A stretch of DNA of 32,000 nt from assembly GCF_000008465.1 (NCBI RefSeq), contig NC_006512.1, positions 540,001 to 572,000 on the forward strand, in the 5' to 3' direction. The stretch comes from Idiomarina loihiensis L2TR (GTDB lineage Bacteria > Pseudomonadota > Gammaproteobacteria > Enterobacterales > Alteromonadaceae). The notes beneath the pieces were generated by a model. The model did not search any database. It worked only from the letters and a program-made list of their open reading frames with translations, and had not been told where the DNA came from. Positions 9,878-27,769 of this stretch are shown piece by piece. Position numbers and translations under genes: made by a program. Each line of letters starts with the position of its first letter. The stretch's first letter is position 1.

Positions 9878-9892
9878 CGGGCTCACCAACCG

Positions 9893-9911
9893 TTCACTTA
9901 AAACGAATGAA
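9893..9911. promoter_or_regulatory. Candidate LysR box (T-N11-A type) in the lysR/dabB divergent intergenic region
   Basis: TTCA-N11-TGAA dyad (ttcacttaaaacgaatgaa) 16 nt upstream of the lysR start. Supported by motif only. Confidence 0.3.
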
Positions 9912-9989
9912 TTTATAGTTTATATCTATTTTACTTAACATCAAGCCAGCACCCATAATTGCTCCAAACAAGACACACGAGGCGCATTC

Positions 9990-11315: not shown

Positions 11316-13585
11316 GCACAGCGAATCGTTTAGCGACTATTGCCGGGCAGGTGAGTAAAGCCATTGCGCCGCAGTGGCCGTTGTCTCAGTGGATAGCGGT
11401 TAACCCCTTCTGGCATTACCGCCAACAGCCGGTAGCCGGTGTTGCTGCGCACTGGCGTTACAGTGCCGGAACACGTTTGCTCATGAGCCCGGACTTTTAC
11501 TGGCAACAATGGCAGCAAAACCGAATAGACGCAGCGCTGGTCACCAACAAAATGGTAAACGAGCTGGAGCAGCGCTCCCTGCTAAAAGCGCAACTGCCGC
11601 AGTGGCGTAACCTCAGCCGGTTGGTGGACAAATACACGCGGCGCCGCCGCAAAATGCGCTGGAACGACGAGGTGGTGCTGCAAATTAGTCAAACCTGTGG
11701 CTTATTCATGCAGTTTCCAACCCGCTTTCAGCAGGCCGGTAAAGACAGTTCGTTGTATCAGCATTGGCTGACTATTTCGCGTGCCGATCGCGGCATTGAA
11801 ACCTTAATGGACGAGGCTGAACTCACCGAATTGTTCGCACAATTGCCGGATGACCCACACAAGCTTATTCAAGTGTGCCATGACAACTTTTTAAGTGACG
11901 CGTCAGATTACGCTCTACGCTGTTACAGCCAGGCGCTTATCAGTGACTTATGGGGTTGGGCCGCGGCATTTTCCTATCAGGACGCTCGTCAGGACAGCCA
12001 GTGGGTATTCGAACTGCTGTGCATTCGGCTGGCCTGGGAATATATTCTGTGGCAGCTGGCCGAGCGCACCAATACTAAGGTTTATCAGCAGCTGCAGCAG
12101 GCGCTTAGCGCACAAGTTGAAAATTGTGAAGGGCAGGTGGCTCATATTGAGCAGCACAACAGCTTATTGTGGCAATGGCAGGCGGCTTACGAACGCTCGC
12201 AGCTAAACAGGTTGCAGTTTAAATCCGACACAGTAGAAGAGAGCAACGCGCCGGACGTGCAGGCAGTGTTTTGTATCGACGTGCGCTCAGAGCGTTATCG
12301 TCGTGCGCTTGAACAGGCCGGAAAAAGCCTGGGCAGCTACGTACAAAGCAAAGGCTTTGCCGGGTTCTTCGGTGTGCCGCTGGCCATTCAGCGCAAAGGT
12401 CGCGATGTTCCTCATGTACCGGGGTTACTGCAACCGGCGTACTACATTAAAGCACCGGCGCGTAAGCAATCGGTTGGTTCCTTATTAAGCAATATGTTCA
12501 ATGCGCCGGTCTCCATGTTTAGCGGCGTAGAGGCGCTGGGGTTAAGTAAACTGAAGTCCTTACTCACTGGTGTGCCCGGACAACTGGCTACGGCTAATAA
12601 TGCGTATATTGCCGACGGCAGCATTTGTGAGCACAACGGCGAGGCGTCAATGGAATCGCTGGTGGGCATTTGTCAGCAGGCTCTGGCCGGAATGCAGTTT
12701 ACCCGCTTCGCGAGGCATATTGTGCTGGTCGGGCATGGATCGCATCACAGCAACAATGCTCAACGAGCAGGACTTAACTGTGGCGCCTGCGGTGGTCAAA
12801 CCGGTGCGTTAAGTGCCCGGGTGTTAGTACGGCTGCTTAATAATCAGAATATTCGTGAGCATTTACGCGAGCAGGGCGTTGCTATTCCCGACGCTACTCA
12901 GTTCCATTCCGCTATGCATGAAACCGTAACCGATAAGGTTATCTGGCTGTCCAATACTGTTCCGGACAGCGTCAAACAAGTGTTCCGCGCAGCAACAGAA
13001 AAGCTAACCCAGGCCTGCGGCGAGTCAGAAAAAGACCGTAAAACACGTTCCGGCCATTGGGCTGAACTACGCCCGGAATGGGGGCTGGCTGACAACAACG
13101 TCTTATTTTTCGGACAGGCTGATCGGCTAACCTCGGCTGATACCATCGGCAGTAATTTTTTGCACGACTACAACAGTATCAATGACCCTGACGGAGAGCT
13201 GCTGGCTCAGCTCATGAGCGCTCCGGGGCTGGTCGCTAACTGGATAAACTGGCAGTACTACTGCTCAGTAACCGAGCCCAAACAACTGGGTAGCGGTAAT
13301 AAGTTGCTGCATAACCGGGTAGCTAACGACATTGGCGTTTTTGAAGGCAACGGTGGCGACTTGCGCCAGGGGCTGGCCTGGCAGTCGGTGCATAACGGTA
13401 GTGATTTTGTGCACCGGCCCATGCGCCTGCAGGTTATTGTCGAAGCCGACGAAGCCACCATTCAGCGGGCGCTGGCCAAGGCTGTCGCTTTTAACGAACT
13501 CTTTGAACAACAGTGGATCAATCTGCATCGACTGAACGCGCGAGGTGAACTATGTCCAGTGACAACACCAGTAACAGCAAAATGA
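11312..13585 (+). CDS. dabA: DabA (DUF2309), the beta-carbonic-anhydrase-like subunit of the DAB pump
   Basis: The large soluble protein contains FCIDVRSE (Cys/Asp) and GHGSHHSNN...LNCGACGG (His/Cys). This is the Zn-ligand pattern reported for DabA. The ATG at 11312 is ATGA-coupled to dabB, so I rejected the ORF-track start at 11222. Confidence 0.85.
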   Translation: MSTANRLATIAGQVSKAIAPQWPLSQWIAVNPFWHYRQQPVAGVAAHWRYSAGTRLLMSPDFYWQQWQQNRIDAALVTNKMVNELEQRSLLKAQLPQWRNLSRLVDKYTRRRRKMRWNDEVVLQISQTCGLFMQFPTRFQQAGKDSSLYQHWLTISRADRGIETLMDEAELTELFAQLPDDPHKLIQVCHDNFLSDASDYALRCYSQALISDLWGWAAAFSYQDARQDSQWVFELLCIRLAWEYILWQLAERTNTKVYQQLQQALSAQVENCEGQVAHIEQHNSLLWQWQAAYERSQLNRLQFKSDTVEESNAPDVQAVFCIDVRSERYRRALEQAGKSLGSYVQSKGFAGFFGVPLAIQRKGRDVPHVPGLLQPAYYIKAPARKQSVGSLLSNMFNAPVSMFSGVEALGLSKLKSLLTGVPGQLATANNAYIADGSICEHNGEASMESLVGICQQALAGMQFTRFARHIVLVGHGSHHSNNAQRAGLNCGACGGQTGALSARVLVRLLNNQNIREHLREQGVAIPDATQFHSAMHETVTDKVIWLSNTVPDSVKQVFRAATEKLTQACGESEKDRKTRSGHWAELRPEWGLADNNVLFFGQADRLTSADTIGSNFLHDYNSINDPDGELLAQLMSAPGLVANWINWQYYCSVTEPKQLGSGNKLLHNRVANDIGVFEGNGGDLRQGLAWQSVHNGSDFVHRPMRLQVIVEADEATIQRALAKAVAFNELFEQQWINLHRLNARGELCPVTTPVTAK

Positions 13586-14596: not shown

Positions 14597-14613
14597 TAAA
14601 GGTGGCGACGCTG

Positions 14614-15858
14614 ATGAATAAACCCTTACTTGAGCGGTATACAAAGGAGAGTCTATTAGACGCTCTAGAAGACACTCCCGTTATACTCATACATGGCTCG
14701 CGACAATGCGGAAAAACAACGCTTGCTAAATCTGTTGGTGAAGTGCTGGGTTATGCCTACATTACTTTCGATGACGAAAACCAATTGGGCGCAGCAAAAG
14801 CTGATCCTGTTGGCTTTGTAAAAAGCTTGCCTGAGAAAACTATATTAGATGAAATTCAGCGCGTTCCTGAACTTTTCCTCTCAATAAAAGAGAGCGTAGA
14901 TGCTAACAGGGTGCCTGGTCGGTTTATTTTAACGGGATCTGCCAATGTTCTACTCTTACCTCAGTTGTCCGACTCTCTTGCTGGAAGAATGGAAATTATA
15001 CACCTAAGACCGCTAGCTCAGTGCGAAATTACAGGCCAAAAACCTAACTTTCTGGCGTCTCTATTTTCCGAAAGCTTATTCTCCGCTGTCACTAATAAAA
15101 AAACTGCTTCGCTGGGAAGCTCACTGGCCGATATCCTTGTCCAAGGAGGCTACCCTGCAGCCATTCAAAGAAAAGCAGCTAAACGTCGCAATGCTTGGTA
15201 TCGAGGTTACATTACAACTATTTTACAAAGAGATATTAAGGACTTAGCGAACATTAGAAACGTCAACTTGTTGCCAAAGCTGCTCTCGTTGGCCGCTTCA
15301 CAAACAGGACGGCTGTTTAACTCCAGTGAGCTAGCATCTCCATTTTCTGTTAGTCGCCCGACGGTTCGTGAATACCTGGCCTTACTTGAACAAATATTTC
15401 TTATTGAGGAATTATCTCCCTGGCACAGCAATCGAATTAGCCGCCTTATAAAAACCCCAAAGTTGCATCTATCGGATACCGGGCTTGCTAGTTCACTACT
15501 GGGGGTAAATGCTGACGAGCTTTGGAAAGATAAAGAATTATTGGGACAATTGCTGGAAACTTTCATTTATCAGGAGCTTAGAAAACATGCGAGTTGGCAT
15601 GATGAGGATCTGAAGTTCTACCACTTCAGAAACAAGGACAAAGTGGAAGTTGATATTATCATTGAGAAAGGCCGTTTAAAGGCAGGTATAGAAGTAAAAG
15701 CGGCGGCAACTGTAAAGCAGTCAGACTTCAAAGGCCTGATTAGACTTAAAGATGCCTGTAAAGGTGACTTCGCTGGTGGGATTGTTTTTTACGACGGGGA
15801 GCAAGTCCTGCCTTTTGGTGACAAACTTTACGCTGTTCCAATATCCCACCTGACGTGA
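14614..15858 (+). CDS. AAA_14/DUF4143-type ATPase with a PD-(D/E)xK-like C-terminal motif
   Basis: Walker A HGSRQCGKTT and Walker B-like TILDEIQ are present. The C-terminus reads ..KVEVDIIIEKGRLKAGIEVKAA (D...E-x-K). I preferred ATG 14614 (AAGGTGG upstream) to GTG 14602. Confidence 0.75.
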   Translation: MNKPLLERYTKESLLDALEDTPVILIHGSRQCGKTTLAKSVGEVLGYAYITFDDENQLGAAKADPVGFVKSLPEKTILDEIQRVPELFLSIKESVDANRVPGRFILTGSANVLLLPQLSDSLAGRMEIIHLRPLAQCEITGQKPNFLASLFSESLFSAVTNKKTASLGSSLADILVQGGYPAAIQRKAAKRRNAWYRGYITTILQRDIKDLANIRNVNLLPKLLSLAASQTGRLFNSSELASPFSVSRPTVREYLALLEQIFLIEELSPWHSNRISRLIKTPKLHLSDTGLASSLLGVNADELWKDKELLGQLLETFIYQELRKHASWHDEDLKFYHFRNKDKVEVDIIIEKGRLKAGIEVKAAATVKQSDFKGLIRLKDACKGDFAGGIVFYDGEQVLPFGDKLYAVPISHLT

Positions 15859-15868
15859 ACATCAGGTG
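15847..15868. terminator. Short hairpin that contains the stop codons of both convergent genes
   Basis: cacctga-cgtgaaca-tcaggtg, a 7-bp stem. TGA of the + gene (15856-15858) and TGA of the - gene (complement of 15862-15864) both lie in the loop or stem. The CCTGA/TCAGG arms resemble the REP core. Confidence 0.4.
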
Positions 15869-17253
15869 ACACTCACCCCATACCGCTCGCGGATCTTAGC
15901 CGCCAGTGCCAGCCGTGCATCGGCTTCGCCATGAATTAACCGTATGCGCTTAACCGGTTCTTCGGTGGCGTCAATAAAGTCCAGCAGCTCCTGCTGGTCG
16001 GCGTGGGCGGAGTAGCCGCCTAAGGTATAAATGCCGGCTTTAATCCAGACCCGCTCGTGGTCAAGCTCAACATAACCGCCGTCCGGGCCATATTGCTGAA
16101 TATCCCGCCCAGGCGTACCCGCTGCCTGATACCCGACAAACAGCACATCGGTGCGAGGGTCGGGCAATAAAGCTTTTAAGTAGTTAAGCATGCGTCCGCC
16201 GGTACACATACCGCTGGCAGCAATGACTATGCAAGGGTCACCGCTACTCTGCAAAAGGTTCACAATGCGCTCGTGTTCGCTGTGCTCATCTACCGTCAGC
16301 AAGCGGTCAAAATTAAGCGGATGGCGATCATCACTTAAACGCTTGCGAGCTTCTTCGTCCCATAAATTCTTCATTGTTCGGTATTGTTTTGTGAACTGCA
16401 CAGCCAGCGGGGAATCCAGAATAACGGTCATTTTATGCCAAACTTTATTCACCTCACCGGTTTCAGCTTCCTGCTCACGCGCGGTGTGAATAATGTCTTC
16501 CAGTTCGTACAGCAGCTCCTGAGTGCGACCAATACTAAAAGCCGGAATTAAAATAACGCCTTTGTTCTCCACACAACGCTCAACTACCGCCTTTAACCGC
16601 TGAGACCGATCAATGCGGGACTCATGGTTTTTGTCGCCGTAGGTGCTTTCCAGCAACAGAAAGTCAGCACGCTCTAATGGCGTAGGGTCGGGCAGTAGTG
16701 GCGTATTTTTGCAGCCTAAGTCACCAGAGAACACCACGCGGTAGTGGGTACTCACATTCTCAATTTCAACGTAGGCCGAACCCAGAATATGCCCGGCTTG
16801 ACGAAAACGTAGCTTAAAGCGCTCAGAGGCAAACTCAGTAGGCAGTTCAATCCATTTATCGTAAGCCGTAGGCCGCAGTTGGCGATGCAAACGCGCAATA
16901 ACCGCATCAATAATCTGGGCGTTTCGGGTTAACCCAATTTTCAGGGCGTCTTCAATAACCAGCGGCAGCAACAGTGCGGTAGCTTTGGTGCAGTATATGG
17001 GACCGACAAAGCCCGCAATAAGCAACCAGGGCAAACGGCCTACGTGGTCAATGTGGCAGTGAGTCACTACCAGCGCCTGTACCTTGCTTATATCAAAGTC
17101 TATTTCCTGGGCGTTAGAATTCGCGCCGGAACCCGAGGTTTCCGCCCCCTGAAACAGCCCGCAGTCAACTAAAAGTGAGTGGTCACTGTCTAAAAAAAGC
17201 TCGTGGCAAGAGCCCGTAACCCCTTCAAACGCGCCGTGGTGTATTACGTCCAT
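15862..17253 (-). CDS. MBL-fold beta-CASP family hydrolase (RNase J/CPSF73-like nuclease)
   Basis: HCHIDHVG (HxHxDH), ESTYG and GGYSAHADQQELLDFI (beta-CASP motif C region) are present. I preferred the start at the second Met (MDVIHHG; AAAGGAA 8 nt upstream). The ORF-track start at 17271 has no RBS. Confidence 0.8.
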   Translation of the reverse strand: MDVIHHGAFEGVTGSCHELFLDSDHSLLVDCGLFQGAETSGSGANSNAQEIDFDISKVQALVVTHCHIDHVGRLPWLLIAGFVGPIYCTKATALLLPLVIEDALKIGLTRNAQIIDAVIARLHRQLRPTAYDKWIELPTEFASERFKLRFRQAGHILGSAYVEIENVSTHYRVVFSGDLGCKNTPLLPDPTPLERADFLLLESTYGDKNHESRIDRSQRLKAVVERCVENKGVILIPAFSIGRTQELLYELEDIIHTAREQEAETGEVNKVWHKMTVILDSPLAVQFTKQYRTMKNLWDEEARKRLSDDRHPLNFDRLLTVDEHSEHERIVNLLQSSGDPCIVIAASGMCTGGRMLNYLKALLPDPRTDVLFVGYQAAGTPGRDIQQYGPDGGYVELDHERVWIKAGIYTLGGYSAHADQQELLDFIDATEEPVKRIRLIHGEADARLALAAKIRERYGVSVT

Positions 17254-17285
17254 GTGTTGGTTCCTTTCCATTGCTGATTATGGGC

Positions 17286-18110
17286 CTACATCGAATTCAA
17301 CTTTTCGGTTAAAAATTTCTGATAAGCAGTTAAGTCGAACAGGCTGGCGGTAACTAAGTGGTGGACGGGGATGGTCAGTGAGTATTGATTAAGAAAATCT
17401 TTTATCTGCAACTCAGTCGCATCAGACGAAAGCTCAGCCGAATAATGTTTTTCATAATGTTCAGTCAGTTGAAGCTCTAAGGTGCTTTCGTCTTGGTAAC
17501 CACTGTGCATAGGTACTAAAACAATATTACTGCATACACCGCGTGTAATATCACATCGAATTAGGTTTCCGATATAGACTTTTCGGTTGCTCAATACTAC
17601 TCGTACCAACATTCGTTTGTCAGGAGATTCATCGCCATTATGAGGAATGAAGTCATCCATTTCTAATGCTCTCAGCAGAAACAACTCGAGCTCGTCATCG
17701 ACTAGCTTGTGTATTAAGAATTTACTGTTATTTTGTTTCCAGTTAGCATCCGCTTTACTCTGAAATTTAGTAACGCTTAAAAAGGAAATTACTAAACCTA
17801 TAGTAAAAAGCAGAAGCACTGACGATTTGTCGGGCTCAACTCCTCCAGGTGAACCAGTGAGTGTTTGCATTGCAACCCATGCTGAAGATAGCGAACCTGA
17901 TACTACTAGTGTTATGAGTCCCCATAAAAGCAAGAGTAAAAAAGTAGCGAAGACAGCACCGAAAAGAATCACTGTACCGCTAATGAACAATGTAATAGCT
18001 AGCCTCGAGGGAACTAGACGGTTAAGTTTTAGTTTGCCAAGTTCGGTGGAGTTAAGGTTTGCATAACCTAAAACAGAGACAAGTAGAACAATAAGGGGAG
18101 TAACGACCAT
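17286..18110 (-). CDS. Hypothetical multi-pass membrane protein with a ~150-aa C-terminal soluble domain
   Basis: A strong RBS (AAAGGAGG) precedes the ATG. It has 3-4 hydrophobic helices in the first ~115 aa. I recognise no family for the C-terminal part. Confidence 0.6.
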   Translation of the reverse strand: MVVTPLIVLLVSVLGYANLNSTELGKLKLNRLVPSRLAITLFISGTVILFGAVFATFLLLLLWGLITLVVSGSLSSAWVAMQTLTGSPGGVEPDKSSVLLLFTIGLVISFLSVTKFQSKADANWKQNNSKFLIHKLVDDELELFLLRALEMDDFIPHNGDESPDKRMLVRVVLSNRKVYIGNLIRCDITRGVCSNIVLVPMHSGYQDESTLELQLTEHYEKHYSAELSSDATELQIKDFLNQYSLTIPVHHLVTASLFDLTAYQKFLTEKLNSM

Positions 18111-18130
18111 CCTTGGCCTCCTTTCTAGAT

Positions 18131-18316
18131 TTAAGCGGTGAGCTCCTGCTCTTTGCGTTTCTGATTAATTTTCTTCTGTAATTCGCGCAACACAGCATCG
18201 TTATTTTCGTCGATGCGTCCAATAATCGCTTGGCGAACTTTTTCGTTGGCTAAGTTTACCGACAACATTCCATTGTTATCTATAACCACCGTTGGTTGTT
18301 TTACGGGAACTGTCAT
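18131..18316 (-). CDS. Hypothetical 61-aa protein, first gene of the minus-strand operon
   Basis: GGGAGG RBS lies 5 nt before the ATG. The C-terminus is a charged helix (LRELQKKINQKRKEQE). A TGnTATACT extended -10-like box is at 18354-18362 on the minus strand. Confidence 0.5.
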   Translation of the reverse strand: MTVPVKQPTVVIDNNGMLSVNLANEKVRQAIIGRIDENNDAVLRELQKKINQKRKEQELTA

Positions 18317-18415
18317 AGAACCTCCCTCAATGAGCTTGTTTTGGATTAAACAAAGTATAGCAGATTTTTGAAAAATGCGAGTCTAGTAGCTTTCTTTGAA
18401 AAATTCAGCGTCAAC

Positions 18416-18459
18416 TTTCAATCAGCCGAAGCTTTACTTTCAATTAGCCGCAACTAAAA
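18416..18459 (+). repeat. Two head-to-tail 22-bp repeats, cores TTTCAATCAGCCG / TTTCAATTAGCCG (array B)
   Basis: Units start at 18416 and 18438, in the same orientation and phasing as arrays A and C. Confidence 0.8.
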
Positions 18460-18547
18460 GCGCACTAAAACCTATAAATGGTAAAACATTAAAACCTAGA
18501 AAACATAACGGGGTGACTGCCGTCAGTCTACAAATTTTAGTGTTATA

Positions 18548-18615
18548 GTTATGTATTAAATGGCATTTAATGCGACAGTTATGTCAAATTATTGTTTTTG
18601 CGCTATAGTTATGTC
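18548..18615 (+). promoter_or_regulatory. Three AGTTATGT direct repeats exactly 30 bp apart, plus an 8-1-8 palindrome, upstream of the Fic gene (candidate operator/promoter)
   Basis: AGTTATGT occurs at 18548, 18578 and 18608; copies 1 and 3 extend to TATAGTTATGT. ATTAAATGgCATTTAAT is at 18556-18572. TATAGT at 18605-18610 could be a -10 box 32 nt before the ATG. Confidence 0.35.
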
Positions 18616-18641
18616 TACTACTAAAAAGCAGCGGGTGCTTT

Positions 18642-20129
18642 ATGGCTGAATTGTATTTCTCAACAACAACAGAACAAAGTCGCGAATTGACTCGCCGGGA
18701 GAAAAAGGGCGAGCTAAAGCGCCTGTATCGGGGAGTTTATACTGATGCTAGTTACGAAGAGTTAACGAGTCTGGTTCTAAGAGACTGGGCTAAGATAGTT
18801 AATTATTTGCTACCTAACGCTATAGCGGCTTATAGAACGGCTCATGAACTACGTCCAGTAGAAGGCACCGTGTTTGTCGCTGATGCCGTGGCGGCGCGCA
18901 GAACCATCGATATTGCGTCCATTTTAACTATTTATATTTGGCCGGGTTCAACCAGCGACCTTGTCGAACCGTTTTTGCCCGAAATGAAGCGCTCCGCACC
19001 AGCTCGTCAGTATTTAGAAAACTTAACGGTGAGTCGCTCTAAAGTAAAAAAGAGCCTGGGCCAAAGTTGGGTGGAGGAGCGCCTGTGTATTGAACTTAAA
19101 CGAACCAATAATGAAGATAGTTTGAATCAGATACGCGACCAAGCACGAGTGTTTGCCAATAGACAGGGGTTTGAAACTGAGTTTGAAAAATTAAATGCTA
19201 TCATAAGCGCTTTGTTGACAACCCATTCAGGTGAATCGATATTAAAAACCGAAGTGGGCATGGCTAGTGCTAAGCAAGAACCGTTTGACGTGCATCGCAT
19301 TGCACTGTTTAAAGACCTGGCCAATTACCTTAAGCGCTGTCAGTTACCCAAATTACCTTATGAATACAATAAGTCTGGTTGGAATCATCTCGCTTTTTTC
19401 GAAAGTTATTTTTCAAATTACATAGAAGGCACAGAGTTTGAGATTGACGAGGCGGAACAAATCGTCTTCCAACGCAGTGAAATTAATAATCGACATGCAG
19501 ACAGTCATGATGTTCTTTCTATCTACGACCAGGTGGTCGACTACCAAGGCATGAGCATTACACCCGAAACACCTGACGAACTAATTAAAAGTCTGCAGCG
19601 CCGTCACTTCGAATTTTTGTTTGAGCGCCCCGACAAAAACCCCGGGCGATTTAAATCGAAAGTAAACAAAGCCGGTAGCAGCACTTTTGTAAGCCCAGAT
19701 GATGTCGTAGGCACACTAACGCAGGCATTTTCCATTTATAAGTCTGTGCCTGAGGGGCTAGCCAGAGCCATATTCTTGCAATTTTTAGTGTCAGAATGTC
19801 ATCCATTTGACGACGGTAACGGCCGGCTGTCACGTATAATGATGAATGCTGAGCTGCACGCAGCAGGCGAATACAAACTGATAGTACCGACAGTGCATCG
19901 AGACAGTTACTTAAACGGCCTTAGAAAAGCCACTCGCGATAGAAACTTTAAAACCCTGGTAAAAGTGTTCTACCAACTGCAACGCTATACCGCATCTATA
20001 GACTGGGCGGACTATGGTGAAGCAAGAGATACGATCGAAGCGCATAAAGCCCATTTGTTACCTGATGAAGGCATTGCTGATTTTAACCGGCAGATTCGGC
20101 AATACCGGTTTACTCCGCCGGTCACGTAG
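18642..20129 (+). CDS. Fic-family protein (AMPylase-type) with an internal inhibitory-helix motif and a long N-terminal extension
   Basis: Canonical Fic motif HPFDDGNGRLSR. The upstream SNYIEG fits the (S/T)xxxE(G/N) autoinhibition motif. The N-terminus ..KKGELKRLYRGVYTD resembles AbiEi-type wHTH antitoxin N-termini. The stop TAG is supplied by the GTAG of the following REP. Confidence 0.88.
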   Translation: MAELYFSTTTEQSRELTRREKKGELKRLYRGVYTDASYEELTSLVLRDWAKIVNYLLPNAIAAYRTAHELRPVEGTVFVADAVAARRTIDIASILTIYIWPGSTSDLVEPFLPEMKRSAPARQYLENLTVSRSKVKKSLGQSWVEERLCIELKRTNNEDSLNQIRDQARVFANRQGFETEFEKLNAIISALLTTHSGESILKTEVGMASAKQEPFDVHRIALFKDLANYLKRCQLPKLPYEYNKSGWNHLAFFESYFSNYIEGTEFEIDEAEQIVFQRSEINNRHADSHDVLSIYDQVVDYQGMSITPETPDELIKSLQRRHFEFLFERPDKNPGRFKSKVNKAGSSTFVSPDDVVGTLTQAFSIYKSVPEGLARAIFLQFLVSECHPFDDGNGRLSRIMMNAELHAAGEYKLIVPTVHRDSYLNGLRKATRDRNFKTLVKVFYQLQRYTASIDWADYGEARDTIEAHKAHLLPDEGIADFNRQIRQYRFTPPVT

Positions 20130-20181
20130 CCTGACACTTGTGTCAGGTGAGCTCTCGTTCCTGGCACAAGAGCCAGGCTAC
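20126..20181. repeat. REPIN-like element (subfamily CCTGACACTTGTGTCAGG) with a degenerate second arm
   Basis: gtagcctgacacttgtgtcagg + spacer + cctggcacaagagccaggctac. Confidence 0.75.
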
Positions 20182-20466: not shown

Positions 20467-22932
20467 ATGAGTTGTGCAGCAGTTGGTGAGTTTATGGCTC
20501 ACCTGATCATATCCGACGAACATATTCATGCTGACCAAATTGTTATGCTCAGAGAGTTTATTGAATTATATGGTTTGGAGAATGATCAGGAGAAAATCTT
20601 CAAAGTATTAGAAGGAAAAGGAGAGGAGAGACTCCCTCAGCTTTATAAAGAATTAGAGCAACTCAGTAAGAAAGAACAAGAAATACTGATTGAAAACTCA
20701 GCCGCAATTGTCGGTTTTAATCGACATTTTGCAAAGCAAGAAAAGCAGGTAATCGCTACTCTATGCAAAGCTGCAAACATAGAGCCGTCAGAACTAATCG
20801 CCGCTGTAAATGACATTATCGAAAACTCGACAAGAGCCTTTAATGACAGGCTCGCTTCACCTGAGATCCAGGATAAATACAGTACGGTAAGCTTAAAGGT
20901 TCGTCGATTTTTTTCGAGGGGAGCCAAGCGAGAATACTTAACGACGAAAATAAAAGAAAGTGAACTGTCAGGGCCTGAGTATGGCAACGCAATAAAGAAG
21001 ACCGGTGAAATAGCAGAGAAGGACTGTCAGCTGGTTGAAGCTGAGCTTTCCAAAATCTTCTCCGCCTTAGAAAGCACCCGCAATGAATTTCAAAGCGTTA
21101 TCAAAGAGAACTCGATAGATAGAAACAAAGCCAGCGAAGACGAAGTTAATTTCCACACCTTTCTCGTTGATTTAAATGACCGGCTTGATAAGCAAGCAAA
21201 AGAAAGCAATGAAGAGTTAAAAGACCTGGTGGATAAGAAACGCCGGGCAAAAAATGCTTTTACTATCGCTCTTATGGGCAGAACAAAGGCGGGAAAGAGC
21301 ACTCTGCACTATGTTATGACCGGCGAAGGTAAAGAGTTTATAGGCGTAGGAGCTGAGCGGACAACCCGGTTTAATCGAGTTTACGAATGGGAAAACTTGA
21401 AACTAATTGACACCCCAGGTATTGGAGCTGCCGAAGCCGGGGGCCGCTCAGATGAAGAAATTGCGTTAAGCGTTGTGGATACCGCCGATGTTATTTGCTA
21501 CGTAGTAACGAGCGACTCAGTTCAAGAAGTGGAATTCAAGTTTTTATCTCAAATCCGTAATAGTAATAAGCCCGTTTTTGTTCTTCTGAACTACAAAGAG
21601 AATATAGAGTCGCCACCGCCTCAATATAAAAAGTTTGTCAAATCTCCACTGCACTGGTTTTCTCGTGACGATGAGAAAAATATACAAGGAACTGTTAACC
21701 GCATAAAGCGAGGCATCGAATCGTACTATGATGGTAACTCCGTCACGATAGTTCCTGTTCACCTAATGGCAGCAAAAATGGCAATGGATGATCGCTGCAA
21801 AGCTGACAAGACAGCTTTCCGCAGCGGTTCGCGAGTTGATAACTTTTTTAATGAAATCCGTGAAAACGTTATTGAATTAGGTCAACTAAGAAAGTCACAG
21901 ACGCTGCTTGATAATACGGCTTGCCGCTTGTGCCGAATGTTGTCTGTGGTTAGAGAAAAGCAAGAGAGCTCAGTAAAAGTAGCGAAGGATATAGAGAACA
22001 AACAGCAAAAACTTTTAAAGTTAATTGATAAGCAAGTAAAGAAAAATAAATCTGCATTTATTAGAGAACTCAAGCTTACTATGGAAAGCGAGCATGGTTC
22101 AGCTAAAGACTTTGCATCAGAAAACTATAAAGGCAAAAAGAAGGATATTGAACGCAACTGGAAAAAAGAAGCAGAGCGAATTGACCAGCAGTTGAAGGAA
22201 AAACTGGAAGTAAAATTGAAAGACTCGGCCGCTGTAGTCCAAGAAGCCGTAAATGAAGCAATGGAGGACATCGCGATAGGTTTTGACGCCATAAGAGAAG
22301 CGGACTTCGATGAGCAAAGTACGTTTAATACAAGTCGCTTGATGTCAGCTCTGGGAGCGTTAATGTCTACAGGTGGCGGAGCTGCCCTTATTATAATTGG
22401 TTCAATGTCGACTCCCGCAGGTTGGGTCGCAGCCGGATTCGTGGTTGTAGGGATATTCGCTGGTTTTTGCTCAGGCCTGGTAAAGTCGAAAGAGCGAAAA
22501 AGAAAAGAGGCTATTGATGCAATTCTTAAGCAAGCCAATAAAAACTTAGATGACCTGGAGCAAAGTTACACCGAGCAAGTGGATAAACTTTTTGAAGAGT
22601 TTCATGAAAAAGCCTCCAGACAATTATCTAGGGTGTTGTCTCGCGTGTCGGAGCAGTACCGAAACTCTGCAAATCTGCTTACACCGTATTGTAACTCGCT
22701 AAACAACGCCATTAATGAACTGAACCAACAGTTTGCTGTTCGCATCATTGAGTTCGCACGTGACGAGCAACTTCCCGAAGAGCGTATTGGTGAGTTAAAA
22801 GTCACTCGTGACTTAGGTAAGAAAACCGAAATTGAGACTAGTTTAAGGATTTCAGAGCAGGGCATACAAAGAGCGGAAAAAGCATTAAGAGAAAAACTAA
22901 CGGTAAAAACATTGGCAAAAGGTGTGCAATGA
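20467..22932 (+). CDS. Dynamin-like large GTPase with a TerB-like N-terminal domain and a C-proximal membrane hairpin
   Basis: G1 GRTKAGKST (nt 21277-21300), G3 DTPGIG and a G4-like NYKE are present, with long coiled-coil stalk segments. A hydrophobic hairpin ALGALMSTGGGAALIIIGSMSTPAGWVAAGFVVVGIFAGFCSGLV is encoded at about 22342-22482. The N-terminal ~130 aa has two TerB-like acidic helical repeats (AHLIISDEHIHADQIVMLREFI ; AAIVGFNRHFAKQEKQVIATLCKAANI). AGGA lies 7 nt before ATG 20467. Confidence 0.75.
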   Translation: MSCAAVGEFMAHLIISDEHIHADQIVMLREFIELYGLENDQEKIFKVLEGKGEERLPQLYKELEQLSKKEQEILIENSAAIVGFNRHFAKQEKQVIATLCKAANIEPSELIAAVNDIIENSTRAFNDRLASPEIQDKYSTVSLKVRRFFSRGAKREYLTTKIKESELSGPEYGNAIKKTGEIAEKDCQLVEAELSKIFSALESTRNEFQSVIKENSIDRNKASEDEVNFHTFLVDLNDRLDKQAKESNEELKDLVDKKRRAKNAFTIALMGRTKAGKSTLHYVMTGEGKEFIGVGAERTTRFNRVYEWENLKLIDTPGIGAAEAGGRSDEEIALSVVDTADVICYVVTSDSVQEVEFKFLSQIRNSNKPVFVLLNYKENIESPPPQYKKFVKSPLHWFSRDDEKNIQGTVNRIKRGIESYYDGNSVTIVPVHLMAAKMAMDDRCKADKTAFRSGSRVDNFFNEIRENVIELGQLRKSQTLLDNTACRLCRMLSVVREKQESSVKVAKDIENKQQKLLKLIDKQVKKNKSAFIRELKLTMESEHGSAKDFASENYKGKKKDIERNWKKEAERIDQQLKEKLEVKLKDSAAVVQEAVNEAMEDIAIGFDAIREADFDEQSTFNTSRLMSALGALMSTGGGAALIIIGSMSTPAGWVAAGFVVVGIFAGFCSGLVKSKERKRKEAIDAILKQANKNLDDLEQSYTEQVDKLFEEFHEKASRQLSRVLSRVSEQYRNSANLLTPYCNSLNNAINELNQQFAVRIIEFARDEQLPEERIGELKVTRDLGKKTEIETSLRISEQGIQRAEKALREKLTVKTLAKGVQ

Positions 22933-24596
22933 ACTTCTCAGAGAAAGCAGAAAGAATTACCTCACTAAAGACTCAAGTGTTCGAGGTATTAAATGAGTAT
23001 CCGGGCTACGAAAACCTGCGGAATAAGCTAAGTTCGGAGCTAGATGAAAAAGAACAAGACTCAAAACTTCGCCTTGTTTTCGCGGGCCAGTATAGCTCAG
23101 GTAAGTCTTCTATTATCTCGGCACTAACAGATAATAAAAGCATAAAAATAGACTCCGACATTGCGACGGATAAGTCTGAGGATTACGAGTGGCGATCGGT
23201 TACGTTAACCGACACTCCCGGGATATCAGCGGGCCGACCTGATCACGATAAGGTTACTCACCAAAGAATCCAGCATGCGGACATACTTGTTTATGTGGTC
23301 ACATACTCGCTATTCGACAATGTTCTTATAGAAGACTTTAAAAGGCTGGCGATTGATTACAACTACAAGCACAAAATGGTTTTAGTCGTTAATAAAATGT
23401 ATTCGGAGGAAGGCGAGTATGACCAGCTGTGTGAGACTTACCTCAAAAATTTAGAGCAACAGATAGGAAAAGAAACGATTCAGCTTATGCCTGTGGCATT
23501 TGTGTCTTCGGGTAATGCTTTGGAGGAGGATGCCGATTTTCATCCCTATGGTCATATGGATGACTTAGTAAAGTTGCTTGATGACATGATAGAAAAGAAT
23601 CAGTCGTTAGCAGGTGTTGAGGCTGTAGCTCAAATTATCGCTACACACATAGAAGACGAGCTGGCTACTAAGGTGGAAGGCACAACGAAGGAAGAGCAAT
23701 TACTTTTACAGCGCATTGAAAGAGTGATCTCTCAAATTAAAAAGGACGCCGAATCGGCACTGAGAGAAGAAGCCTCAAGAATAAAAGCATTAGCTAAAAG
23801 CATGGGCAGCGAAAATGCTTTAAATGTTGGAACTAGCGAGACACTAGAAGAGGATGTACAAGCGTCCTCTGAACTGCTTAACACAGAAGCACATAACGCA
23901 TTTGATAATTTGACAGCACGTTTTGATGAACTGGATAAAGAGCTTGATAGTGAATTGTCGGAGCTAAATGACAGCAACTTAGCTGAACAGTTTTTCATGA
24001 GGTTTGAAGAAAATTCCTCCGAGAATTCGCTAGGCGAGACTCCCGATATTGGCGATGCCGCTGATTTTGCCGTAGCGAATCAGCTGTCAGCGTTACTAGG
24101 TCGTGGGAGCGGAGCTGTCGCCAGTAAGGCTATGGGCGCAAAAGCGGGTGCCGGCTTGCTTAAAGCGAGCGGAGCCTCAGGTAGTTCAGTTCACCAAACG
24201 GTATTGCAAGTGGGTAAAGCTTTGGGAGTTAAATTTCAGCCGTGGCAGGCAGTTAATATCGCCAAAAACATCGGTAATGTGGCTAAAGTATTAGGCCCTA
24301 TTATGGCGGCATTGCCGATTATATTTGAAGGCATCGATATTTATAATGAAGAAAAAAGAGAGAAAAAAATAGCAGAAGCTCGCAGGAATATCCGCGAACA
24401 GTTTCAAGATGCAGGTGACCAGATAACCCAGCAAATGAAAGACTCCGCAGGCGAGTTTATAACTGCAAAGTATGGTCAGCTATTAGAGGAAATTAGTAAG
24501 CTACGGCGCGCCAGAATCAATGAAGCGCAAAATTTAGAAACTTGTGGTCAGAAGCTAAAGTCACTCTCCAATAGCCTTCGTGAAGTTTTGGTTTGA
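22929..24596 (+). CDS. Second dynamin-like GTPase, translationally coupled to the first
   Basis: ATGA overlap at 22929-22932. G1 GQYSSGKSS (nt 23085-23108), G3 DTPGIS and G4 NKMY are present. It has a helical stalk and a Gly/Ala-rich hydrophobic segment (GRGSGAVASKAMGAKAGAGLLKASGASGSS ... VLGPIMAALPIIFEGI). Confidence 0.75.
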   Translation: MNFSEKAERITSLKTQVFEVLNEYPGYENLRNKLSSELDEKEQDSKLRLVFAGQYSSGKSSIISALTDNKSIKIDSDIATDKSEDYEWRSVTLTDTPGISAGRPDHDKVTHQRIQHADILVYVVTYSLFDNVLIEDFKRLAIDYNYKHKMVLVVNKMYSEEGEYDQLCETYLKNLEQQIGKETIQLMPVAFVSSGNALEEDADFHPYGHMDDLVKLLDDMIEKNQSLAGVEAVAQIIATHIEDELATKVEGTTKEEQLLLQRIERVISQIKKDAESALREEASRIKALAKSMGSENALNVGTSETLEEDVQASSELLNTEAHNAFDNLTARFDELDKELDSELSELNDSNLAEQFFMRFEENSSENSLGETPDIGDAADFAVANQLSALLGRGSGAVASKAMGAKAGAGLLKASGASGSSVHQTVLQVGKALGVKFQPWQAVNIAKNIGNVAKVLGPIMAALPIIFEGIDIYNEEKREKKIAEARRNIREQFQDAGDQITQQMKDSAGEFITAKYGQLLEEISKLRRARINEAQNLETCGQKLKSLSNSLREVLV

Positions 24597-24617: not shown

Positions 24618-24650
24618 ACGCTCCTGGACGTTATTCAGATCCAGGAGCGT
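24618..24650. terminator. Bidirectional hairpin between convergent GTPase genes
   Basis: acgctcctgga (24618-24628) pairs perfectly with tccaggagcgt (24640-24650) around an 11-nt loop. Confidence 0.6.
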
Positions 24651-24660
24651 TATTCACACT

Positions 24661-25941
24661 TTAAGCTAAATCAAGGCAGTCAGAGTCTTTTCCTAATTTT
24701 TCTGATAAAAAGTTGCGAAGAAAACCAAGCACTTCGTCTCCACCAATGGCCTTTTCCATCAATCTGGGATCTGGGTCAAAAGCGGTTTCAAAAACGGCTT
24801 TTATCAAAGAGCTTTTGCCAGAATTAAGCTCAAGGCGTTCATTAATACTATTAATCAGAGCTTCTTTATCCGCATCATTTTTCGGCGTATCTACTTTATT
24901 AATGCATAAAACAACCGGACGATTATAGCGTTTTAGCTTTTCAAAGGTTTCTAGCTCTGTACCTGTAATACCGCGTTGAATATCAACCACCCAAACAAAC
25001 ACGTCGGTGTGAATTAAGTAGTCTGCAGTGTTCTCATTCACCTCATGCTCGCTGTCATGGAAACCGGCATAGTTCATAACGGTTGCGGCTTCGTTAAGTG
25101 CATAGGCTTCAGCTTTACTCGTTGAACCGGGTACGGCACTAACATTATTTGTATCAACGCCAAACGTTTCACGAATTAACGAGTCTTTGCCGCACGAACC
25201 TTCACCCACAATGCCAATATTAACTCTTTTTTCTGCCAGTTGACGCAACATAGCTATTTGCACAACCGCGGGTATGGTTTTCCGGTAAGCCGGGCCTGCA
25301 AGGTCAAAAGCAAGCCAGAGTCCTGAAGCAAACCAGCCTACAGGGCCTAAAGCCACGCCAATTGTTCGGGTTACCAGAATATTTCCGCCGAAGGTTAAGC
25401 CTCTGTTGAGTAATGCTCTGGCAATATAGTTGGCAATAATGACCGCCATTCTATAAGTGCTGAAGCCTAGCGAACGTAGCCCCAGCTGAGTTCCCATGAC
25501 CGATAGTGCGGCTGGTATTTTCGTGGTTTCGTAACCAAACTCTAATAAAAGTTCGGACTTCTCTTCTTCACTCATTTCAGCTACTGCATCTGCGAACAGC
25601 TTGCCAATAATGAGATCTTCGTTTTCCTTAGCTAAGTTGGTTTTACTCACATCGGCTTTTAGCTTTAAACCCACGTCATACACAATTTCACTGTAGTAAG
25701 AAGGCTCCGTAAAGACAGACTTCAAACTGTTGCTACCAGCGTCTCTCAAGTCATTGATGAGTTGTTCTGCATGCTGTTCTTTTACAAAGTAATTTGCCGT
25801 ATTACCTGTTTGTTGCTGAGCCTCACGTGCTGCGATTCCAATTGAGCGCTGCAGGTCTTTATCAACTTTTAGATACTCTACTAAAGGTAAAATGTCGGCG
25901 TAATGTGTTTTACACAGTGTTTCTACTGGATGATTATTCAT
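24661..25941 (-). CDS. Fusion protein: YaaW/UPF0174-like N-terminal domain plus a C-terminal Era/MMR_HSR1-type small GTPase with atypical G motifs
   Basis: The N-terminal half (..YSEIVYDVGLKLKADVS.. ; ..GPAYRKTIPAVVQIAMLRQ) resembles E. coli YaaW as recalled (..AYRVTIPAVLQIACLRR). The C-terminal half has G1 GEGSCGKDS (Asp where Ser/Thr is expected), a G3 position NYAG (Asn for Asp) and G4 NKVD. AAGGA lies 7 nt before the ATG. Confidence 0.65.
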   Translation of the reverse strand: MNNHPVETLCKTHYADILPLVEYLKVDKDLQRSIGIAAREAQQQTGNTANYFVKEQHAEQLINDLRDAGSNSLKSVFTEPSYYSEIVYDVGLKLKADVSKTNLAKENEDLIIGKLFADAVAEMSEEEKSELLLEFGYETTKIPAALSVMGTQLGLRSLGFSTYRMAVIIANYIARALLNRGLTFGGNILVTRTIGVALGPVGWFASGLWLAFDLAGPAYRKTIPAVVQIAMLRQLAEKRVNIGIVGEGSCGKDSLIRETFGVDTNNVSAVPGSTSKAEAYALNEAATVMNYAGFHDSEHEVNENTADYLIHTDVFVWVVDIQRGITGTELETFEKLKRYNRPVVLCINKVDTPKNDADKEALINSINERLELNSGKSSLIKAVFETAFDPDPRLMEKAIGGDEVLGFLRNFLSEKLGKDSDCLDLA

Positions 25942-25998
25942 AATTTTTTCCTTGTTTGTTATTTCAGAAACAATCTAGAGATTGCTGATATACATACA

Positions 25999-26013
25999 GC
26001 AACAAAGGTGCCA
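25999..26013 (-). promoter_or_regulatory. Sigma-54 (-24/-12) promoter driving the YaaW-like/GTPase gene
   Basis: The minus strand reads T-TGGCAC-CTTTG-TTGC-T, an exact match to TGGCAC-N5-TTGCW. The -12 GC lies about 58 nt upstream of ATG 25941. An EBP-like gene is encoded divergently. Confidence 0.72.
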
Positions 26014-26155
26014 ACTTTAATTTTTTAAATTAATATATTAAATATCAACATCTTAGCTGTTAATTAGGTTTCATCAGATAAAACCGCGTGTTAATAAATA
26101 TTAATTTAAATTAAGATAATTCAAATCAACTGAAATTTTTTAATTTGAGGCTGGC

Positions 26156-27769
26156 ATGAAAAGAGATTATGAGCACTTAGAGGCGAACTTATCGTGTTTG
26201 GTTAGCCGCTATTCGGAAGATCCAGAGCAGGCTAAACAAGTATTTTCGTCACTTTTTCACGAGTTTCTAACCGGCGAAATTGGCAAACAGCTTAAGCACA
26301 GCTTAAAGGAAAGGTATGAATCGATAACTCCCCCCTCTGACGAGGCGAGCAAACTTTTTAACGTGCTGAGTAAAAAATCAGACGAGAAGCTTATTGAGCT
26401 AATGTCAGAGCTTTCAGCTGCTGAAAGAGGACGGGAATATGGAGAGCTTGGTTTAACGCATTTGTCTGCTCAGTTACGTCGCCCACTTGTGCTGCATTTA
26501 TGTGATGCACTATTTAAACCAGAAAACTCAAAGCTGTTAGATGAACTCGTTAATTACCTTATCCAGTCAGGTATGCGAAGCCTTGACTCGAATATGGCGC
26601 TGAGATGGGAGTGGACGGAAGAGCTCAATGACAGAGCAAAGGAGTTTTTAGCTAAGTTACAACTTGCTGTAGCAAAAGACGGCGTTCCCGATTTAGATAT
26701 GAATAAGGAAGGGCCCGTCATGATCTGTGGTCCAACGGGTTCAGGTAAAACGTTAATTGCAAAGCTGCTGGCCGACTCACTCTTTGAGAGCAAGCTTATC
26801 AGTCTTAATATTGCGGCAGTAACCGACAGCGTCCTGGAAAGCCGAATTCGGGGGCATACGAAAGGAGCGTTTACTGGTGCCAGCCAACAAGTAAAACCAA
26901 TATTCGCGAGTGCCCATAACGGCGTCCTGGTGTTTGACGAGCTTCAGTCTGCTTCCCGGCAATCACAGACTCAGTTATTAGACTTGTTGCACTCAATAAG
27001 CGATAAGGTTCAAGTCGCTCCTATGGGGAGCCACGAGTCGAGTTTATATCAGGTCAGGACATTGTTTCTGGTCAATGAGCCGTTAAATGAGTTATTAAAC
27101 AGTAATGAACTTCGCCTGGACTTTCTCCATCGTATGCGGCAAATCGTTACATTCCCGAGTTTGCATGAGCGTTTAAACCAAAAAACGAAAAACTTAAAAC
27201 TGCTGCCGGCACTCATTTCATTAATGAAGCTTTCGTTCATATTAAATTATTCGTCTGATGGCCACTTCTCCGATATATCGCGTGCACAGCTGTTCGACAT
27301 TATCTGGAACCTGAAGCTGGAAGATGAAGCCGAGGCACAACTTCGTCATTATTCCTGGCCTGGCAACCTACGTGAATTTGAGCGGTTATTTACCGACTTG
27401 TTTCATGAGCAACTTCTGCTTGATCGTAAAAGCAATACAATAAAATTGATTAAAAGAAGTTTCTTCCGAGATTTTGCCTTAGCCACCGAACAGCGGCAGG
27501 CTGAAGCAAAAGGGTTAGGAGATGAAAACAGACTGAGTGAAGCCGAAAGCTCTGACTTAAATGAAGTTGAGCAATTAAAAGTAAAATTAGTGTCAGATGC
27601 ATTAAGAGAAAACAACTTTGTGCTGAAGGATACCTACGAAGCATTAAAGAACTATGATGTCGGTTTGGGTCACCATAAAGCACTGAAACTGTTCCTGCTA
27701 GGTTATACAGCGCATTTTCCGGAAGGCATACGACACTGGATTAATGAGAAGCATGTTCAGAACGCGTAA
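26156..27769 (+). CDS. Sigma-54-dependent enhancer-binding-protein-like AAA+ ATPase with an unassigned N-terminal domain
   Basis: Walker A GPTGSGKT, an exact GAFTGA loop (RGHTKGAFTGAS; nt 26864-26881), Walker B VLVFDEL and SWPGNLREFE are present. The C-terminal ~60 aa is helical and could be a Fis-type HTH. The first ~185 aa is helical with no receiver/PAS/GAF/CARF signature that I can see. Confidence 0.8.
   Translation: MKRDYEHLEANLSCLVSRYSEDPEQAKQVFSSLFHEFLTGEIGKQLKHSLKERYESITPPSDEASKLFNVLSKKSDEKLIELMSELSAAERGREYGELGLTHLSAQLRRPLVLHLCDALFKPENSKLLDELVNYLIQSGMRSLDSNMALRWEWTEELNDRAKEFLAKLQLAVAKDGVPDLDMNKEGPVMICGPTGSGKTLIAKLLADSLFESKLISLNIAAVTDSVLESRIRGHTKGAFTGASQQVKPIFASAHNGVLVFDELQSASRQSQTQLLDLLHSISDKVQVAPMGSHESSLYQVRTLFLVNEPLNELLNSNELRLDFLHRMRQIVTFPSLHERLNQKTKNLKLLPALISLMKLSFILNYSSDGHFSDISRAQLFDIIWNLKLEDEAEAQLRHYSWPGNLREFERLFTDLFHEQLLLDRKSNTIKLIKRSFFRDFALATEQRQAEAKGLGDENRLSEAESSDLNEVEQLKVKLVSDALRENNFVLKDTYEALKNYDVGLGHHKALKLFLLGYTAHFPEGIRHWINEKHVQNA

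Follow-up and report, generated by a model that had tools for sequence, protein, structure and literature searches.

A sigma-54 promoter and its probable dedicated activator at a JukA-GTPase cassette of Idiomarina loihiensis

A stretch of 32,000 nt from Idiomarina loihiensis L2TR (contig NC_006512.1, positions 540,001 to 572,000; this whole stretch is the window, and coordinates are counted from its first letter) contains a two-gene cassette, formed by IL0536, which codes a fusion of a JukA/YaaW-like domain with a small GTPase, and by the divergent IL0537, which codes a sigma-54 bacterial enhancer-binding protein (bEBP). We propose, with a probability of about 0.6, that IL0537 is a dedicated sigma-54 activator gating the JukA-GTPase cassette, and that the cassette serves as a defence or conflict module which stays silent until it is induced. 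The regulatory part taken alone, in which IL0537 and a sigma-54 promoter would switch on IL0536, is held with high confidence, while a phage-defence role of the cassette is plausible. Exact-sequence matches identified the two genes as IL0536 (WP_011233794, 426 aa, minus strand, 24661..25941), the GTPase gene, and IL0537 (WP_011233795, 537 aa, plus strand, 26156..27769), annotated as "sigma 54-interacting transcriptional regulator"; they are flanked by IL0535, which is LeoA-like, and by IL0538, a UDP-glucose dehydrogenase gene.

The sigma-54 promoter

The promoter is found on the minus strand at 25999..26013 and reads TGGCAC-CTTTG-TTGC, with a T on either side. An earlier reading of this DNA, made from the sequence only, had described an exact -24/-12 match, its distance from the GTPase gene and its uniqueness in the window, and all three points were as described: counted from the C in the -12 GC (25999), the A of the IL0536 start codon (25941) lies 58 nt away, and TGGCAC-N5-TTGC occurs a single time on the two strands of the 32 kb. 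If that C is -12, transcription would start near 25987 and the leader would be of ~46 nt. Polar-flagellated gammaproteobacteria such as Idiomarina presumably carry rpoN.

Taken alone, the exact motif is suggestive only, since the number expected from dinucleotide-shuffled windows is 0.14, and 14 in 100 of these contained one; with one mismatch allowed, the window has three matches, which is the chance level. Two one-mismatch sites, at 2709 and 22915, were rejected on this basis, the latter being also without the GG. A TGGCAC at 20163, upstream of the LeoBC-like gene, was rejected as well, as it is part of an inverted repeat (CCTGGC...GCCAGG) that follows the Fic gene and has no GC at -12. The frequency of exact matches in shuffled windows is the argument for a chance match in an AT-rich spacer; this explanation is effectively refuted by comparative data, because the element keeps its position in all the lineages described below. 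Indeed, a strict search for TGGCAC-N5-NNGC in 436 kb, both strands included, gave 21 matches, 11 of which lie at precisely the promoter site, where the expected positions add up to ~1.3 kb.

Co-conservation of activator, promoter and target

The case for IL0537 as the activator of this promoter is built mainly on the co-occurrence of the three elements across related loci. These were collected with the GTPase alignment (A2), which retrieved 8 loci in representative genomes, 1 in viral contigs and 38 in metagenomes, and individual look-ups were added; the representative-genome loci include Pantoea, Citrobacter, Symbiopectobacterium, Vibrio metoecus, Simplicispira, Burkholderiaceae, Aquabacterium and alphaproteobacterial metagenome-assembled genomes. 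The JukA-GTPase core clade consists of 39 loci, corresponding to 22 lineages at 90% and to 13 at 70% GTPase identity. Wherever a core-clade locus extends far enough upstream, it includes an activator gene of the same rare family and, 39-58 nt ahead of the first open reading frame (ORF), a GG-N10-GC element; L015 is the single locus in which the activator gene is not divergent. Most loci have TGGCAC as the -24 element, with TGGCAT in two of them (L020, L025) and a TGGCCT that is ambiguous in L015; at -12 the tetramers are TTGC, TCGC, ATGC, TGGC, CCGC, TAGC and, once, TTGA. Thus, the view that a sigma-54 promoter here faces a divergent GAFTGA activator, already expressed in the sequence-only reading, is borne out by the co-conservation of promoter, activator and target in every informative locus of the 39.

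In the relatives, the common arrangement is an activator gene divergent from a gene for a protein of ~120 aa, which is followed by the gene for a GTPase of ~415 aa; the same arrangement is found on an Azospirillum plasmid, and in Halopseudomonas the locus-tag numbering (16840, 16860) implies the three-gene order. Citrobacter pasteurii (L012) and Pantoea (L005) are among the carriers of the complete cassette. A second Idiomarina lineage (L018), with ~94% DNA identity, has the two-gene form; its promoter-to-ATG stretch is identical to that of the window at 73 of 74 positions, while the upstream spacer is ~85% identical. In L015 (308-3791) the genes for activator, small protein and GTPase all point the same way, and the activator is without the WPGN sensor II motif; the promoter candidates of this locus are overlapping and non-consensus (TGGCCT-N5-TTGC and TGGCCT-N5-TCGC).

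Two distant JukA-GTPase variants, a 473-aa protein of V. cholerae and a 422-aa protein of Lelliottia, are accompanied by neither the activator nor the promoter. At the V. cholerae locus (L013, GCA_003337295.1) the upstream gene (2609-3313) codes a 234-aa protein with a borderline WYL match, 21.6 bits versus a cut-off of 21.8, suggesting that a WYL-type regulator may replace the activator in this variant; the same island also carries integrase, AlpA, RadC and DUF2787 genes.

Another possibility is that a different activator serves the promoter, IL0537 acting elsewhere and its adjacency being incidental. The upstream activating sequence (UAS) discussed below is a candidate only, and bEBPs can act in trans, some of them from solution; however, activator, promoter and target stand together in every informative locus, over 22 lineages, and activator and promoter are both absent in the two variants. 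Moreover, the activator family is small, with ~11 proteins scoring well above generic bEBPs (133-229 bits versus at most 90), and is essentially confined to the GTPase-cassette context. This possibility is, on these grounds, very unlikely.

The activator

The AAA+ sigma-54 interaction core of IL0537 spans about aa 184-430 (26705-27445, plus strand), with a match to Pfam Sigma54_activat (PF00158, 8.3e-28) over aa 184-330 that reaches 97.6 bits versus a cut-off of 20.2. The full bEBP signature previously read in this divergent 537-aa protein is present: the Walker A GPTGSGKT (aa 192-199, 26729-26752, plus strand), GAFTGA (aa 237-242, 26864-26881, plus strand), VLVFDEL for Walker B and WPGNLREFE for sensor II. 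RLDFLHRMR, with the arginine fingers, is found as well, and the columns of GPTGSGKT, VLVFDEL, RLDFLHRMR and WPGNLREFE are invariant or nearly so in the family alignment (A1); the L1-loop motif of the relatives is GAFTGA, GAYTGA, GSFTGA or GAFTDA. NCBIfam aligns the core to NorR, PspF, RtcR and NtrC, in all cases far under the equivalog cut-offs, and the NorR and PspF alignments extend to aa 496-498. In the AlphaFold2 model the core has a predicted local distance difference test score (pLDDT) of 80-95, and the best Foldseek matches of the model are NtrC1, DmpR, FlrC, LuxO, FleQ and PspF.

The orphan N-terminal region (aa 1-183, 26156-26704, plus strand) has no family match in Pfam, NCBIfam or PADLOC. 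A phmmer search with it against 1.84 billion representative proteins recovered only IL0537 itself, and a profile built on 14 N-termini found nothing in the PDB or in a set of 5.8 billion proteins, this profile being too weak to recover its own members. In the relatives the corresponding regions are of 160-220 aa and none has a Pfam match; their alignment (A3) is weak, with shared elements that include an N-terminal strand, a QAxxEW helix and an RKTxxxLP strand. The Idiomarina N-terminus is the most divergent of the family and is without these family motifs.

These results agree with the earlier description of a region without any recognisable known domain, but not with its being all-helical. 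AlphaFold2 does draw helices in the IL0537 N-terminus, but with a pLDDT under 50 over residues 1-114, and in one relative (P0009) the N-terminus is predicted as alpha/beta, with four strands and a pLDDT of ~80. A Foldseek search with full-length P0009 gave receiver-plus-AAA+ structures as top matches (395-489 columns, root-mean-square deviation 14-17 A, no invariant residue); full-length searches of this kind are dominated by the AAA+ core, and these long alignments give no more than a hint of a receiver-like alpha/beta fold for the P0009 N-terminus. As for the sensory role of the region, it is one that we infer.

The rate at which the parts of the activator change is uneven. Among nine lineages, mean pairwise identity is 17.7% for the N-terminus, 40.7% for the AAA+ core and 21.7% for the C-terminus; in the same lineages it is 52.2% for the JukA domain, 44.5% for the G domain and 29.5% for the small protein. 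Between close enterobacterial relatives, the activator N-termini are 64-74% identical, the AAA+ cores 86-89% and the GTPases 89-95%. The N-terminal region evolves ~3x faster than the ATPase core. At the other end of the protein (about aa 468-537, 27557-27766, plus strand), AlphaFold2 predicts with confidence a four-helix bundle, which is conserved in the family.

The spacer between the two genes

The intergenic region between IL0536 and IL0537 is of 214 bp (25942-26155), and the 142 bp from the promoter to the activator start codon have a G+C content of 21%. A site with the consensus for integration host factor (IHF), TATCAACATCTTA (WATCARNNNNTTR), is present on the plus strand at 26043..26055, its centre near -62, with a local chance of ~0.045. 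In at least 7 lineages the IHF consensus recurs with this orientation, 41-43 nt upstream of TGGCAC; several more have one-mismatch versions, and in the second Idiomarina lineage it is retained despite four substitutions. This conserved site, unlisted in the sequence-only reading, is better supported than the palindromes there proposed as UAS.

The palindromes in question, of the form TTAAT-N(2-4)-ATTAA, are a proximal one (TTAATATATTAA, 26030..26041, about -43 to -54) and two distal and overlapping ones (TTAATAAATATTAA and TTAATTTAAATTAA, 26091..26114, about -104 to -127). Their coordinates were correct; the reservation that the evidence was weak in an AT-rich region did not hold, given that 3 are observed versus 0.05 expected and that none of 5000 local dinucleotide shuffles reaches 3. 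The proximal palindrome together with 26098-26110 also makes a 13-nt perfect inverted repeat (P=0.004, local shuffles). Comparison with L018 makes a UAS role of the proximal palindrome less probable, and shows partial conservation of the distal ones, whose outer half-sites are kept and whose middle half-site is not; the distal palindromes are therefore retained as a reasonable UAS candidate.

A sigma-70-like promoter, TTAATA-18-GATAAT, which could drive the activator gene, was found at 26091..26120 on the plus strand by consensus scan only (9 of 12 matches); the count of such promoters in the spacer is not above that of shuffles. The candidate UAS overlaps the -35 of this promoter, and autoregulation of the activator may therefore be possible. 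Between the window and L018 the block at ~26056-26086 is almost invariant. A direct repeat, TGTTAAT, occurs twice at a distance of 31 bp (26056-26064 and 26087-26095), with both copies kept in L018, and between them lies a near-palindrome, TTATCTGATGA, which is perfect (TTATCTGATAA) in L018; the TGTTAAT repeats and TTATCTGATGA are alternative UAS candidates to the palindromes listed before.

The GTPase fusion and the glycine-zipper protein

IL0536 is composed of a JukA/YaaW-like domain (aa 9-237, 25231-25917, minus strand), matched by the PADLOC JukA model PDLC04111 (4e-40) and by NCBIfam PRK10236 (1.5e-8; listed under the name "acidic protein MsyB"), and of a small GTPase domain (aa 238-426, 24664-25230, minus strand; Pfam MMR_HSR1, 9.4e-12). 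The relatives of IL0536 match the JukA model at 1e-45 to 1e-47. A sub-threshold match to Pfam Ubiq_cyt_C_chap was also detected in IL0536, its similarity to LeoA is weak and limited to the G domain (1.6e-7), and PADLOC gave no LeoC match. The YaaW-GTPase fusion was already listed as a domain architecture in 2008, with I. loihiensis among its carriers (PMC2268670).

In IL0536 and all its relatives (alignment A2) the P-loop is GxxxxGKD and not GK[ST], and G3 is NxxG and not DxxG, while the G4 motif NKxD is normal. The unusual G1 and G3 may be compensating changes at the Mg2+ site, or may indicate a GTPase that binds the nucleotide and hydrolyses it poorly.

Downstream, the LeoA gene and IL0536 converge on a spacer of 64 nt, in which a hairpin with a 9-bp stem (GCTCCTGGA...TCCAGGAGC) was read from the sequence at 24620..24648. 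The terminator scan made no call on it, as it is not followed by a T-run; the hairpin probably terminates transcription in both directions, and IL0536 would then be monocistronic.

In all lineages except Idiomarina (the window and L018), the first protein encoded after the promoter is the one of ~120 aa. Its C-terminal half is a glycine zipper, for which Pfam Gly-zipper matches are repeated but sub-threshold, and among the related loci these proteins have no PADLOC family match and are not JukB. The window has no room for such a gene, given the 58 nt from promoter to ATG and an IL0536 ORF that cannot be extended upstream.

The Idiomarina cassette could then be a decaying remnant, in which the glycine-zipper gene has been lost and activator and GTPase no longer work. 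Idiomarina is the sole lineage without the small gene, its activator N-terminus is the one that has diverged most and lost the family motifs, and its GTPase is <55% identical to all others. Conversely, both ORFs are intact and of full length, the catalytic motifs of the activator are all present, and the two-gene form with its promoter and leader has been kept in L018 at ~94% DNA identity; a remnant of this kind appears quite unlikely.

Genomic context

The cassette locus lies in what its gene content identifies as a defence island, on account of its Eleos, Fic/SoFic-like and PDC-S01 neighbours and of a fall in G+C, from ~52% to ~43% around 14 kb of the window; the low-G+C island covers 14602-20129 and the cassette region. 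The island genes comprise a PDC-S01/DUF4143 ATPase (14602-15858, plus strand, PADLOC 2.7e-164), a beta-CASP metallo-beta-lactamase RNase-like protein (15862-17271), a 274-aa protein without family match (17286-18110) and a 495-aa Fic protein (18642-20129, plus strand) with SoFic/PDC-S04 matches and a sub-threshold AbiEi-like match at its N-terminus. No tRNA or Rfam features were found near the locus.

The neighbouring Eleos pair (20467..24596, plus strand) was recognised by PADLOC and is outside the cassette. It is a complete, dynamin-like pair, made up of a LeoBC-like protein of 821 aa (20467-22932, plus strand, PADLOC LeoBC 5.8e-88) and a LeoA-like protein of 555 aa (22929-24596, plus strand, PADLOC LeoA 3.7e-88); the stop of the former overlaps the start of the latter (ATGA, 22929-22932), and the LeoBC-like protein has an additional N-terminal region of ~190 aa, matched neither by the LeoBC model nor by any Pfam family. 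Eleos was rejected as a component of the cassette, LeoA and LeoBC being absent from all 12 related loci checked (L001-L012); for the same reason, and for want of a LeoC match, IL0536 was not taken as a LeoC-like third component of Eleos.

Further upstream, at 9011-13585, a LysR-type regulator gene is divergent from two genes with a 94-nt overlap of their ORFs, one for a multi-pass membrane protein of 441 aa and the other for a protein of 787 aa; we take this pair to resemble the DabB/DabA (DUF2309) pair for inorganic-carbon uptake.

Proposed mechanism and function

In the proposed mechanism, RNA polymerase with sigma-54 would form a closed complex on TGGCAC-N5-TTGC (26013-25999) and IHF would bend the DNA at 26043-26055. 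The activator would bind upstream, probably around 26056-26114, where the overlap with its own sigma-70-like promoter leaves room for autoregulation. A signal would be read by, or relayed to, the N-terminal region, which would then release the AAA+ core to form a hexamer, and ATP together with the GAFTGA loop would open the promoter. The product would be the JukA/YaaW-GTPase fusion, co-produced in other lineages with the small glycine-zipper membrane protein, and the JukA-GTPase, with or without the latter, would be both the sensor and the effector in a module for phage defence or conflict.

A role in phage defence or conflict is preferred to one in repair because the cargo is a JukA/YaaW-GTPase located in a defence island and placed, elsewhere, after a glycine-zipper gene. 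Support for such a role is indirect, and comes from the homology to JukA, from the fast-evolving activator N-terminus and from the location of cassettes on islands, integrative and conjugative elements, plasmids or a viral contig. At other loci the defence or mobile neighbours include GmrSD, PglZ, NERD, integrases, TraN and a STAND-like ATPase. A viral contig of 44.5 kb (L017, IMGVR_UViG_3300025116_000059, classed viral) carries a full Burkholderiales-type cassette beside a 725-aa STAND-like ATPase, and the cassette may travel on prophages or satellites.

Several observations weigh against the proposal. As to the output, IL0536, with its altered G1 and G3 motifs, perhaps does not hydrolyse GTP normally, and the Idiomarina cassette, being without the glycine-zipper gene, may be a reduced or altered version. 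As to the regulation, the Fis-type helix-turn-helix HTH_8 of Pfam was found in none of 11 members of the activator family, and a profile of the activator C-terminus gave only spurious matches in the PDB. In the spacer, 5 of the 12 bases of the proximal palindrome (26030-26041) are changed in L018, so that it is probably a dispensable site, and no common UAS motif was found across lineages, a result that fits a fast-evolving C-terminal domain of the activator. Finally, two of the related loci (L004, L008) lie among metabolic or signalling genes and not among defence genes.

Loci outside defence contexts are one of the elements that would fit a different role, that is a Psp-like response to envelope or membrane stress, in which the inner membrane, or the assembly of membrane proteins, would be the target of the glycine-zipper protein and of a membrane-associated YaaW/Cbp3-like chaperone domain. 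The regulatory layout does resemble pspF-pspA, the small proteins bear glycine-zipper membrane motifs, and the YaaW domain is Cbp3/chaperone-like (bioRxiv 10.1101/2022.09.17.508391), as the sub-threshold Ubiq_cyt_C_chap match also indicates. However, the distribution of the cassette is patchy and linked to mobile elements and islands, as seen from integrases, TraN, the viral contig and, in Citrobacter, a truncated GntP permease gene adjoining the cassette; the activator N-terminus is fast-evolving, defence genes adjoin several loci, and JukA homologues have published anti-phage activity. A stress response of this type is considered unlikely.

Within the defence or conflict reading, a more specific form is put forward as tentative, namely an inducible anti-phage system in which the hypervariable N-terminus would be the infection sensor, either by direct response to a phage product or through the JukA-GTPase or the glycine-zipper protein. 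As sigma-54 cannot work without an activator, a toxic membrane effector and a Juk-type GTPase would be held completely off up to the time of infection, and Idiomarina would possess a natural minimal version, without the glycine-zipper effector.

Relation to known systems

Two sigma-54 circuits, PspF/pspA and RtcR/rtcBA, had been indicated in the sequence-only reading as parallels of this arrangement. The parallel stands for the regulatory logic, and does not extend to the membrane- or RNA-repair cargo, whose place is here taken by a JukA/YaaW-GTPase fusion in a defence island. In RtcR/rtcBA there is likewise a bEBP with an N-terminal regulatory region, a GAFTGA AAA+ core and a C-terminal DNA-binding region, beside its presumed target operon, and the PADLOC RtcR_PspF models are the best PADLOC matches of IL0537. 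RtcR, however, has a CARF domain, which is absent from IL0537, since the NCBIfam RtcR model aligns only through its positions 201-362 of 530 and the PADLOC one from ~189; the cargo also differs, being rtcBA or CoCoNuT genes in one case and the JukA-GTPase, with or without the glycine-zipper protein, in the other. RtcR-like CARF-bEBPs have been predicted to control CoCoNuT defence operons (PMC11090510), so that the idea of a bEBP-gated defence pre-exists this work.

With PspF/pspABCDE, the phage-shock response, the cassette shares a divergent activator gene, a sigma-54 promoter separated from the UAS by an IHF site, a candidate UAS over the activator's own promoter and a membrane-associated output. 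Conversely, PspF is controlled by PspA and has no N-terminal regulatory domain, whereas in the cassette activators that region is of 170-220 aa (183 aa in IL0537); on the PspF equivalog model IL0537 scores 105.8 bits versus a cut-off of 443.55, and no pspA-like gene is found near IL0537 in the window.

The third system to be compared is Juk, formed by JukA and JukB, given that the JukA/YaaW models match IL0536 over its first 230 aa. No JukB match was obtained among the window neighbours or the small proteins of the related loci. Juk has been described as an immunity against jumbo phages, in a preprint that also notes JukA domains fused to Ras-like GTPases and puts JukA forward as the sensor, with effectors that vary from system to system; the words "sigma" and "AAA" occur in it zero times, and it is silent on a GTPase fusion among the tested operons (bioRxiv 10.1101/2022.09.17.508391). 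The adjacent Eleos likewise involves membrane-associated GTPases, and is a separate, convergently transcribed operon.

Literature searches returned no paper in which a YaaW/JukA-GTPase fusion is connected with a bEBP, with a sigma-54 promoter or with a glycine-zipper protein as partner, and the cassette, its JukA domain apart, is not modelled in PADLOC 2.0; a conserved sigma-54-gated cassette that recurs across Proteobacteria apparently had not been described. Most known defence systems are constitutively expressed or kept down by repressors, WYL and Xre proteins for example. If the proposal is true, a private sigma-54 activator would provide the cassette with essentially zero basal expression and with a switch operated by ATP hydrolysis, the signal being read by a fast-evolving domain. 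For the JukA/YaaW-GTPase fusions, the analysis supplies a regulatory context, together with a candidate effector, the glycine-zipper protein, and a natural effector-less variant in Idiomarina. For the study of sigma-54 regulation, it would add a bEBP family whose two terminal domains are uncharacterised, and a textbook geometry of UAS, IHF site and promoter, the UAS being putative, that can be traced over 22 lineages.

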